This document shows positions 2,281 to 5,217 of a DNA stretch of 64,000 nt, piece by piece. The stretch covers positions 8,958-72,957 of the forward strand of contig LCCV01000001.1 of NCBI GenBank assembly GCA_000998135.1, in the 5' to 3' direction. This stretch comes from Parcubacteria group bacterium GW2011_GWA2_42_14. Lineage in GTDB: Bacteria; Patescibacteriota; Minisyncoccia; Sungbacterales; GWA2-42-14. The notes beneath the pieces were generated by a model. The model had not been told where the DNA came from. It did no database searches and saw only the letters and a list, made by a program, of their open reading frames with translations. Positions within the stretch are counted from its first letter, which is position 1; each line of letters opens with the position of its first letter. The position numbers were made by a program, and so were the translations under genes.

Positions 2281-5217
2281 CTACAAAACAAAATTTATCA
2301 GACGGCCAGGAATATAAATAACTTTTTTAACCGGCTTATTTTCCAAATATTTTTTTACTTTTTCACGGCTTAAAACAATTTCGGCAGCGTCTTTTTCCGA
2401 AATTTCAACCGTAACCTCAATAGAATCGCGTACTTTCCCGTTAATCTGCACCACCAGTTCAAAAATATTTTCTTGAATTAGTTTTTGGTCATATTCCGGC
2501 CATTTCTCAAAATGAATAGAATTTAATTGTTTTATATTTTGAATTTTGGAATTTTGAATTTGTTTGGGATTTGGGATTTGGGATTCGGGACTTCCAAAGA
2601 ACTGTTGATATAACTCTTCGGATAGGTGCGGCGCAAACGGCGCTAAAAGTTTTAAAAATATTTTAAGGTACTCAATGGAAACTTTTTCGGAATTTTTCTC
2701 AAACTCATTCAGCAAAATCATCAGCGAAGATATCGCCGTATTATACCGCAAACTTTCAATATCTTCTCCTACTTTTTTTATGGTTTTGTGCAACAGTCGT
2801 TCCAAATCATTTCTAATTTTGGGTTTGGGATTTGGAATTTGTTTGTAATTTGTGATTTGTGATTTATAATTTACAAAACTATATACTCTATTCAAAAACC
2901 TGTATATCCCATTTATCCCTCCGGAATTCCACGGCCCCCCTTGGTCATACGGCCCCATAAACGCCAAATACATTCTTACTGTGTCAGCGCCGTATTTTAC
3001 CACCTCCTTATCCGGGTCAATGACATTGCCGCGCGATTTAGACATTTTCTGAAAATCAGGACCCAGAATTATGCCATGATTCTTTCTGCCGGTAAATGGT
3101 TCCGAAAAATCAACAAAATTCAAATCATATAAAACCTTGATGAAAAAACGGGAATAAAGAAGGTGCATAGTATTATGTTCGGCTCCTCCTATATAAAGAG
3201 GTACGGGCAGCCATAATTTCATTTTTTCTTCGGATGCGAATTTTTGAAAATTTTTCGGATCAACATAACGGATAAAATACCAGGAAGAATCAACAAAAGT
3301 ATCCATAGTATCGGTTTCCCGTTCTGCCGGCCCATTACATTTAGGACACTTCGCACCTGCCCATTTTTCTGCCCTGGCTAAAGGAGAACGCCCGTCGTCA
3401 GTTGGCATAAAATTTTTAAGCAGGGGAAGTTTTACCGGCAAATTTTCTTCGCTGACCGGCTGCCAGCCGCACTTTCTGCAATTAACCATTGGTATGGGAG
3501 TGCCCCAATAACGTTGGCGGGAAATTACCCAATCATGAAGCCGATAATTTACTTTTCTCTCTCCCCTAACAAATTTCGCAATCTCCCACTTCGCATTCTC
3601 TGAATCCATGCCGCTAAATTCTCCGGATTCAATAAGAATTCCGCCATCAATATACGCCCGCTCTTTTCCTTCTAAGCGCACAAGCAATTCGGGAATCTCC
3701 GCGCCTCTTACAAAATCTTTTACTTTTTCTCTCTCTATCCAAACGGCATCGTGTGTTTCTGTTTCCTTTGTAGAAACCGGGAGTTTCTTATCACTCTTCA
3801 GCTCAAAACAGAGTCCGTATACCTCGGATAACCTGTTCTCGCTTTTATGCGCTGCAAAATACTTTGCATAAACGGGCGGACCCAGTTGTTTTACAAAACG
3901 AATATCCATATAGCCGGTTTCTTCTCGTATTTCCCGCATGCCTGCCCCAGCCATATCTTCCCCTTCTTCAACTCCACCAATAATAAAGGTTTGCCAATCA
4001 TATTTTTTCCACTTAAGACATAAATATTTATTTTCGTTCCAGTGTTTTACGATACACTGTACCGTTTTTCTTTTTATCGTAGACGCGCCATCGCGCGGAG
4101 GATTAGTATAATCAACAAATATAGGCGCTACAACATGACAAATAGGAAGATTATATTTCTTCGCAAATTCAAAATCCCGTGAGTCATGGGCCGGAACGGC
4201 CATAATCGCGCCGGTTCCGACATGACCCAGCACGTAATCGGCGACCCAAACCGAAATTTCTTCTTTATTGGCCGGATTTATCGCCTTTACACCTTTTAAT
4301 TCCACGCCGGTTTTTTCTTTCCCTTCGGCTATACGCTCTTCATAATTTTTAACTTTCGCTTTTTTGATATATTCAACAACTTTTCCATAATTCATAATTC
4401 CTAATTCATTATTCTTAAGGAGTGGGTGTTCCGGACCCAAAACCATGTAAGTCGCGCCGAAAAGAGTATCCGAGCGAGTCGTGAATACTTGTATCTTGTA
4501 TCCTGTATCTTGTATCTTAAAATCTATTAATACTCCTTCCGACCTGCCGATCCAGTTTTTTTGTGCAAGTTTTGTGGTTTCCGGCCAATTCAACCCTTGC
4601 ATATCGTTAATTAACCGCTCCGCGTAATCGGTTATCCGAAACATCCATTGTTCAAGTTCTTTTTTAATAACAGAGCTGTCGCACCGCTCGCAACAACCAT
4701 CAACTACCTGTTCATTGGCAAGCACGGTTTTATCCTTAGGGCACCAATTCACCATGGTTTTGGCGCGATACGCCAATCCTTTTTCGAACATCTTCAAAAA
4801 CATCCATTGCGTCCATTTATAATATTCGGGCTCAATGGTTGATACGGTTCTAGACCAATCAAAACTCGCCCCCATGCTTTTTAACTGCTTGGTCATATAC
4901 ATTATATTCTTCTTTGTCCAATCACGGGGATTAATTTTATTTTTAATAGCGGCATTTTCCGCGGGCAGGCCAAAAGCGTCAAAACCAATGGGGTATAAAA
5001 CATTGCGCCCGTTCATTCTTAAAAAACGAACGGAAATATCCGGTACGGCAAACGCGTACCAGTGGCCTATATGCAAATTGCCGGATGGATAAGGAAATTC
5101 CACCAATACCATGTAATTATTTTTCCCGGCAATCTTATCTTTCGTTTCATAAAGCTTCTGTCCCTGCCAGATTTTCTGCCACTTCTTCTCAATTTTTGAA
5201 GAATTATACTTCACCAT
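2281..5217 (-). CDS. leuS: Leucyl-tRNA synthetase carrying an internal Nudix-hydrolase domain.
   Basis: Class I HIGH motif (PSGNLHIGH), KMSKS, the editing-domain [12 protein letters not shown] box and the RQRYWG motif are all present. The start is placed at the ATG giving [17 protein letters not shown]. Residues ~411-560 hold a perfect Nudix box, [23 protein letters not shown]. Confidence 0.95.
   Translation of the reverse strand: [978 protein letters not shown]
2534..2597 (-). repeat. Repeat family A, (GGGATTT)n / caaattcaaaattc, inserted in-frame in leuS.
   Basis: The DNA gaattttggaattttgaatttgtttgggatttgggatttgggatt encodes [22 protein letters not shown]. Other copies occur at 2815-2875, 19921-19982, 27031-27146, 51183-51230 and 58164-58232. 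Confidence 0.8.

Follow-up and report, generated by a model that had tools for sequence, protein, structure and literature searches.

The stretch of DNA analysed here, referred to below as the window, comprises 64,000 nucleotides of the genome of Parcubacteria group bacterium GW2011_GWA2_42_14 (contig LCCV01000001.1, positions 8,958 to 72,957). It carries on its minus strand a leuS gene encoding a leucyl-tRNA synthetase (LeuRS) in whose editing domain, known as connective peptide 1 (CP1), a Nudix hydrolase domain is nested (Table 1). The gene lies within an uninterrupted open reading frame (ORF) at 2281-5325, with LeuRS sequence on both flanks of the insert, and its start was set at the ATG at 5217 by alignment to the LeuRS of Thermus thermophilus (matching stretch MEKYNPHAIEAKWQ). 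The gene product scores 958.9 bits against the NCBIfam equivalog model TIGR00396 leuS_bact (cut-off 548.4) and 776 bits against the T. thermophilus enzyme (1h3n), with which it shares 38-39% identity. Its Pfam domains comprise the class I catalytic domain, the PF13603 editing domain, PF00293 NUDIX and an anticodon-binding domain.

Table 1. Features of leuS and of the nested Nudix module, in window positions. A4 denotes an alignment of 72 LeuRS sequences, including 60 insert-bearing relatives; Tt, T. thermophilus.
Feature	Position	Strand	Residues	Remarks
leuS coding sequence	2281..5217	minus	978 aa	stop TAG 2281-2283, start ATG 5215-5217
HIGH signature, class I catalytic site	5062..5073	minus	49-52	H49 and G51 invariant in A4
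CP1 editing domain before the insert	4129..4560	minus	220-363	PF13603, 197.7 bits
T-rich motif TTRSDT of CP1	4465-4482	minus	246-251	
AHD-containing editing motif of CP1	4183-4218	minus		editing Asp is D345
Nested Nudix hydrolase module	3670..4128	minus	364-516	153 aa
Nudix box	3910..3978	minus	414-436	exact match to GX5EX7REUXEEXGU
Subfamily motif HKSENR, downstream of the box	3832..3849	minus	457-462	consensus [FY]-A-x-H-K-x-x-N-R
CP1 remainder and return to catalytic core	3532..3669	minus	517-562	aligns with Tt LeuRS from 372 onward
KMSKS loop	3034..3048	minus	724-728	invariant in A4
Anticodon-binding-type helical domain	2410..2802	minus	806-936	PF08264, 79.5 bits

When the window protein is aligned with T. 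thermophilus LeuRS (1H3N), its residues 1-363 correspond to residues 1-362 of that enzyme and its residues 517-725 to residues 372-586. The intervening residues 364-516 thus form a clean insertion, which takes the place of nine T. thermophilus residues; close relatives lacking the insert have a loop of about 20 there. The segment matches PF00293 with 35.8 bits (E 9e-9) when the full-length LeuRS is searched and with 39.6 bits (E 7e-10) when excised, compared to a gathering score of 21.1, and its predicted catalytic and metal-binding residues are E420, R428, E429, E432 and E433. Downstream of the box, alignments A1 (22 sequences) and A3 show the lysine and asparagine of the subfamily motif (K95 and N98 in module numbering) to be invariant and R99 nearly so. 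Tyrosines are also found 14 and 17 residues after the box (YAKYF), in columns occupied by F or Y throughout the family; the subfamily rules of the Bessman laboratory reportedly place a conserved tyrosine some 15-17 residues after the box in the RppH/Ap4A-hydrolase group. In the AlphaFold model of full-length LeuRS the module is predicted with a local confidence score (pLDDT) of 92-95, and its predicted fold is the alpha/beta/alpha Nudix fold. By profile, motif, predicted fold and alignment, it is an independently folding Nudix domain in the CP1 loop that follows the AVPAHD...LPI segment.

The initial annotation had noted an extra, Nudix-bearing segment with a perfect box inside LeuRS, and the score above gathering, the exact motif and the clean alignment gap bear it out. 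The Pfam match, the alignment with solved LeuRS structures, in which the segment is an insertion and not a LeuRS subdomain, and the independent fold in the loop all answer to checks that it had proposed. Its coordinates of 3646-4095 (residues 375-524, approximately) do overlap the insert but are displaced by about 10 residues, and its figure of about 50 residues for the canonical loop has to be corrected in view of the 9 and 20 residues given above.

The host enzyme appears equally well preserved. The PF13603 match extends over residues 220-366 and covers profile columns 1-143 of 185, and residues T246, T247, R248, T251, H344 and D345 of the editing domain are invariant in A4. The full-length model, computed from the same 72-sequence alignment, has a pLDDT of 89.8 and a predicted template-modelling score (pTM) of 0.81, and compares with the solved structures 2BTE, 1H3N and 4AQ7 at target-normalised TM scores of 0.80-0.85. 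Judged by sequence, the window protein is thus a bacterial-type class Ia LeuRS that looks competent for editing. Given the motifs retained, the model and the conservation, both LeuRS and Nudix enzymes therefore look intact. Outside the insert, the leucine-specific domain (T. thermophilus residues 587-637) is absent, the alignment passing from residue 586 to residue 638 at the KMSKS loop (approximately 3034-3060, residues 720-728). Two low-complexity inserts without a T. thermophilus counterpart, at residues 876-897 (2527-2592, minus strand) and 787-803 (2809-2859, minus strand), have the peptide QIPNPK in common and are poorly predicted, with pLDDT below 50 at residues 793-801 and blocks of 53-69 around residues 871-900.

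Other origins of the segment were considered and rejected. It does not represent a known LeuRS subdomain, such as the leucine-specific domain or an idiosyncratic CP1 insertion, because it coincides with a gap in the T. thermophilus enzyme and is a Nudix domain by profile, motif and fold. Nor does it resemble a mobile element or intein, since repeats at its boundaries are short, imperfect and at chance level, and it contains no further Pfam domain. At the edges of the insert no DNA repeats beyond chance were found, no compositional break was found at the insert, and a search with PADLOC for a link to anti-phage defence gave no match for it.

The domain has many relatives. An exhaustive HMMER search with a 203-residue query against 1.84 billion cluster representatives returned 571 matches, 89 of them below 1e-30, and the best 150 consist mostly of long proteins that match the whole query in one stretch. 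About 125 of these 150 are LeuRS or LeuRS fragments containing the domain, and the remainder are short proteins, assigned by landmark motifs. A protein identical to the window LeuRS (P0220) occurs in an independent ENA assembly. Within the 120 nearest LeuRS clusters, the domain is present in 90 (median length 972 residues) and absent from 30 (median 815 residues). Named sources of Nudix-bearing LeuRS include Wolfe-, Yanofsky-, Giovannoni-, Moran-, Kaiser- and Campbellbacteria as well as 'Parcubacteria', and the names given to such proteins in nr and UniRef are only 'leucine--tRNA ligase' or 'class I tRNA ligase family protein'. A scan of GTDB species genomes, which was pattern-limited so that its counts are lower bounds, yielded at least 44 loci, 35 within LeuRS ORFs and 9 free-standing. 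They were distributed over Taylor-, Nomura-, Zambryski-, Lipton- and Magasanikbacteria, Paceibacteria, Gracilibacteria and SR1 (the latter two translated with code 25) and three metagenome-assembled genomes (MAGs) labelled 'archaeon'. The site of the window copy, between '...LPIxxVI' and 'AYxxxGxLxNSG' in the CP1 loop, is occupied by the same subfamily in the 60 insert-bearing relatives of A4, as indicated by matches to the subfamily hidden Markov model (HMM). The same insertion is also seen in a divergent second LeuRS fragment (P0002/L004), one of two relatives retrieved by a word-index protein search.

The nested Nudix domain is a widespread design in Patescibacteria (the Candidate Phyla Radiation, CPR), and most of the nearest CPR LeuRS clusters have it. 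The survey of relatives that had been suggested at the outset therefore recovered the fusion in abundance (90 of 120 nearest clusters, at least 35 species genomes), and the feature is not the singular oddity for which it had been taken. The Nudix-bearing LeuRS of the 'archaeon' MAGs (L023, L030, L043; P0022, P0028, P0030) look chimeric: their N-terminal part and CP1 are of bacterial type (TIGR00396, 883-924 bits), and their C-terminal third corresponds to columns 569-937, approximately, of the archaeal leuS model.

Members of this Nudix subfamily also exist as separate genes. Free-standing homologues of 154-190 residues, from the same phyla, align across the entire module including its N-terminal 'IPxFIDxxNPPR' strand, and for this reason it was a whole Nudix gene that became nested. 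No leuS was found within flanks of about 4 kb around nine such loci. Two free-standing Nudix proteins of 157 residues (P0164, P0171) are nevertheless named 'leuS' in NCBI, presumably by annotation transfer from Nudix-bearing LeuRS. Across 317 aligned copies of the domain, glutamate is nearly universal at the positions of E429, E432 and E433, with a minority of Q at that of E432. Two box types can be distinguished: type 1, with the canonical E..RE..EE arrangement, is found in 178 of the roughly 209 copies that occupy the window's loop, the window copy included; type 2, in which E7 of the box is replaced by Q and R15 by A, M or T, is common among the free-standing copies and present in some LeuRS. 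The catalytic residues are under purifying selection, because most loop copies keep the box and the glutamates are nearly universal even though the module is only 37% identical, compared to 60% for the core. These are mean identities of the 60 insert-bearing relatives to the window protein, and they indicate that the rest of LeuRS has changed more slowly than the module it hosts.

Other positions in LeuRS are used as well. One copy or two tandem copies may lie just before the CP1 entry strand, or one just after it; tandem copies also occur at the window's site, and in one case a copy follows the RYWG block. Proteins with three Nudix domains (P0003, P0004, P0264) or two (P0005, P0006, P0007, P0012, P0013, P0040, P0328) were found. 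The tandem pair before CP1 in P0003 and P0004 consists of a canonical-box copy and a type 2 copy (Glu to Gln, Arg to Ala), which suggests an intramolecular pseudo-dimer. Short proteins apart, LeuRS is the sole host seen for the subfamily among the 150 best matches. A further family of 273-388 residues (P0203, P0120, P0131, P0147, P0206, P0108, P0118, and L050 5236-9648 from ENA ERZ27227503, k141_1184269) consists of a degenerate C-terminal half of CP1, with the catalytic Asp replaced ('PGHN/PAHN/PAHI'), and a Nudix domain of the subfamily nested at the same loop. Since the genes flanking the 273-residue proteins are not LeuRS, these do not represent pieces of a split LeuRS. The L050 gene, with overlapping starts, lies between a weak radical-SAM-like gene and a gene for a 350-residue protein of unknown function, with two CYTH-domain genes as flanks, and gives the impression of a CP1-Nudix cassette that has joined an operon for nucleotide metabolites.

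The history of the cassette at its loop is discontinuous. When mapped onto a neighbour-joining tree built from 119 LeuRS cores (759 columns), presence and absence of the insert require at least 11 changes. The insert is missing from P0228, the sister of the window LeuRS (72% core identity). In P0221, which comes next, the same loop holds a type 2 Nudix domain 33% identical to the window's module, and the group that follows has type 1 modules of 38-41% identity. The free-standing proteins P0153, P0017 and P0154, with 59, 55 and 51% identity, respectively, are closer to the window's module than most other inserted copies. It follows that this loop has repeatedly acquired the cassette, lost it or exchanged it for another.

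Enzymes of other kinds have settled in the same synthetases. LeuRS of relatives contain a nested Ham1/ITPase domain (P0020, 197 bits), a HAD phosphatase (P0009) or, just after the CP1 entry, a serine or alpha/beta hydrolase (P0243). In P0261 a PF10706 nucleotidyltransferase-like domain replaces Nudix in the same loop, and an ASCH domain is recorded for the CPR LeuRS P0262 in precomputed Pfam assignments only. In the window itself, the isoleucyl-tRNA synthetase (IleRS; 18895-22686, minus strand, 1263 residues, 836.7 bits with TIGR00392) contains a nested domain of the histidine phosphatase superfamily (PF00300, 121 bits, residues 533-695), placed after the match to T. thermophilus IleRS at about residue 480.

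A stand-alone Nudix gene at 47200-47649 on the minus strand, pointed out in the initial annotation and matching PF00293 with 60 bits, could have been the parent of the insert. It is only 29% identical to it over 72 residues and scores 24 bits with the insert-family HMM, and an origin of the insert by duplication of this gene was rejected since the two belong to different subfamilies. The SpoT-like HD hydrolase reported at 37030-37566 fared less well: the 178-residue ORF on the plus strand does contain a sequence resembling the RelA/SpoT-type HD motif ('THPLW...LFHDILEDT') but gives no Pfam match even at E<=1. Five aminoacyl-tRNA synthetase genes are found within about 22 kb (2281-24740), namely those for LeuRS (2281-5217), methionyl-tRNA synthetase (6960-8477), a class II enzyme with an HGTP-anticodon domain (13683-15011), IleRS (18895-22686) and arginyl-tRNA synthetase (23112-24740). 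A tmRNA gene lies at 27196-27656 on the plus strand (Rfam RF00023, 117 bits), and no tRNA gene was detected across the 64-kb window.

On balance we favour, with somewhat better than even confidence, the view that this LeuRS is a bifunctional protein in which an editing-competent scaffold carries an autonomous Nudix pyrophosphohydrolase as a tethered passenger. This view builds on the architecture and fold of the protein, the conservation of its catalytic residues, the wide distribution of the fusion and the repeated gain, loss and replacement of the cassette. A Nudix protein of the free-standing type, about 153 residues long, would have been inserted, in frame, into a loop on the surface of CP1; its N- and C-termini appear to adjoin, so that both folds would stay intact, and the Nudix site would add a second or third active site to the LeuRS polypeptide. 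Since every residue of the catalytic box is kept, we read the module as a putative autonomous, Mg2+-dependent pyrophosphohydrolase. We further infer that its most likely substrates would be polyphosphate-linked nucleotides (ApnA-type dinucleotides, non-canonical nucleoside triphosphates, Np4-type caps), and that the tie to LeuRS most likely consists in tethering to, and co-expression with, an essential and constitutively made protein of a minimal genome, substrate channelling being less likely. Homologues unlinked to leuS, close LeuRS relatives without the insert and the other enzymes nested in LeuRS fit a passenger equally well, and the phosphatase nested in the IleRS of the same genome favours an uncoupled one.

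The foremost competitor is a clean-up site coupled to the chemistry of LeuRS, in which the Nudix domain would hydrolyse Ap4A and Ap3A, adenylate by-products or adenylate-mimicking toxins and so tie aminoacylation to alarmone levels. We rate it as possible but rather doubtful. The adenylate chemistry of aminoacyl-tRNA synthetases, LysU for example, is the main source of Ap4A (PMC9437257), and Ap4A/Ap6A hydrolases and Rv2985 are among the structural neighbours of the module. Several observations that a pure passenger model leaves unexplained speak for coupling and weigh against the reading we prefer: LeuRS as the only host among the 150 best matches, at least four insertion positions, which all lie around CP1, with as many as three copies in one protein, and the persistence of the CP1-fragment and Nudix unit as a free-standing family. 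That close relatives have re-acquired the cassette at this loop, or had it replaced there, moreover suggests recurrent selection for the Nudix-LeuRS pairing. The absence of the insert from the closest LeuRS relatives, the lack of leuS within about 4 kb of the nine free-standing loci and the unrelated domain that fills the loop of P0261 all tell against coupling. LeuRS is not known as one of the strongest producers of Ap4A. In addition, the module stays under the thresholds of the RppH and ApnA family HMMs, scoring 19-24 bits with the RppH models (PRK00714) for cut-offs of 116-118, which also counts against a pyrophosphohydrolase passenger. A coupling of Ap4A or alarmone turnover to aminoacylation is, on this analysis, plausible if weakly supported. 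It is tempting to carry the idea further and to regard the Nudix domain as an integrated third active site of LeuRS for by-product proofreading, destroying Ap4A-type dinucleotides, aberrant adenylates and adenylate-mimicking toxins at their origin beside the editing domain, with selection driving repeated capture by CP1 in CPR and some archaeal MAGs; to this version, too, we would give only tentative credence.

An RNA-directed role, in which the module would resemble RppH and act on the 5' ends of tRNA(Leu) or of other RNAs in the vicinity of a tRNA-binding LeuRS, as a pyrophosphohydrolase or a decapping enzyme, appears unlikely: the scores lie far under the RppH cut-offs, CP1 handles the 3' end of the tRNA and not its 5' end, and free-standing homologues occur without an RNA-binding partner. 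Even less probable in our estimation is a non-catalytic module that would sense a ligand, contribute structurally or by regulation to the movement of CP1, or offer a platform for interactions. The Nudix clan does have non-enzymatic members (PMC5389931), and the minority type 2 box is common in free-standing homologues and present in some LeuRS; the perfect box of the window copy, kept in 178 of about 209 loop copies despite low overall identity, argues the other way. Finally, an assembly chimera or a frameshift joining a Nudix gene to leuS would be suggested by the unusual architecture only, and is ruled out, to within a negligible residual chance, by the continuous ORF with LeuRS on both sides, by the identical protein on an independent contig and by hundreds of homologous fusions from different samples, phyla and genetic codes. 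We accordingly rank the autonomous tethered enzyme first, coupled Ap4A clean-up second, an RNA-directed enzyme third and a non-catalytic module fourth.

A search for literature on LeuRS or other aminoacyl-tRNA synthetases combined with Nudix domains found nothing relevant in searchable papers, and neither 'tRNA' nor 'synthetase' occurs in the survey of the Nudix clan published in 2017. The sequences can already be found in public databases, together with automatic Pfam hits, and hence form no new sequence family; the design as described here appears to be unreported. Extra catalytic domains on synthetases are, to our knowledge, rare in bacteria and have been discussed mostly for eukaryotes. 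What the annotation calls simply 'leucine--tRNA ligase' is in this case an essential synthetase with an active-looking pyrophosphohydrolase inside its proofreading domain, and such proteins offer a system for asking whether Ap4A made by a synthetase is policed in cis. They also provide a natural case in which domains are nested and cassettes turn over at a single loop, of use for understanding how much a mobile CP1 tolerates and for protein engineering. The packing of housekeeping hydrolases (Nudix, Ham1, HAD, alpha/beta-hydrolase, histidine phosphatase) into class Ia synthetases of ultra-small genomes affects the inference of metabolism from annotation. Should by-product proofreading prove to be true, LeuRS of CPR bacteria would constitute a direct link between aminoacylation and dinucleotide-alarmone homeostasis.

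Compared to known systems, the window LeuRS shares with the solved enzymes of T. thermophilus (1H3N/2BTE) and E. coli (4AQ7) the HIGH and KMSKS motifs, a CP1 domain with T-rich motif and Asp, the Zn module and the C-terminal domain. It differs from the T. thermophilus enzyme in lacking the leucine-specific domain and in its two low-complexity inserts, and the solved LeuRS that it matches have no domain in the loop following the AHD helix-strand, where it has 153 residues. Free-standing Patescibacteria proteins such as P0153, P0017 and P0154 (158-163 residues) belong to the Nudix subfamily of the insert along the whole length of the module, box and HKxxNR motif included, but are encoded by separate genes away from leuS; NCBI labels proteins of this free-standing kind 'NUDIX hydrolase' or, in two cases, 'leuS'. 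Among characterised proteins, those of the RppH/ApnA-hydrolase/DIPP group (E. coli RppH 4S2X, T. thermophilus Ndx1 1VC8, M. tuberculosis Rv2985 9CXX, lupin Ap4A hydrolase 1F3Y) resemble the module in fold and box and are its nearest neighbours in structure and sequence. Its structural neighbours include Ap4A/Ap6A hydrolases, RppH and Rv2985 of Mycobacterium tuberculosis, the top match being an uncharacterised protein, and the lupin Ap4A hydrolase is a weak sequence match (E 0.0014); together they point, weakly, to substrates of this group. The nearest parallels in architecture are the IleRS of the window with its PF00300 (His_Phos_1) domain, likewise a class Ia synthetase carrying a small enzyme, though with another passenger at another insertion point, and, by library name alone, NCBIfam NF040702, 'isoleucine--tRNA ligase, N-acetyltransferase domain-containing'.

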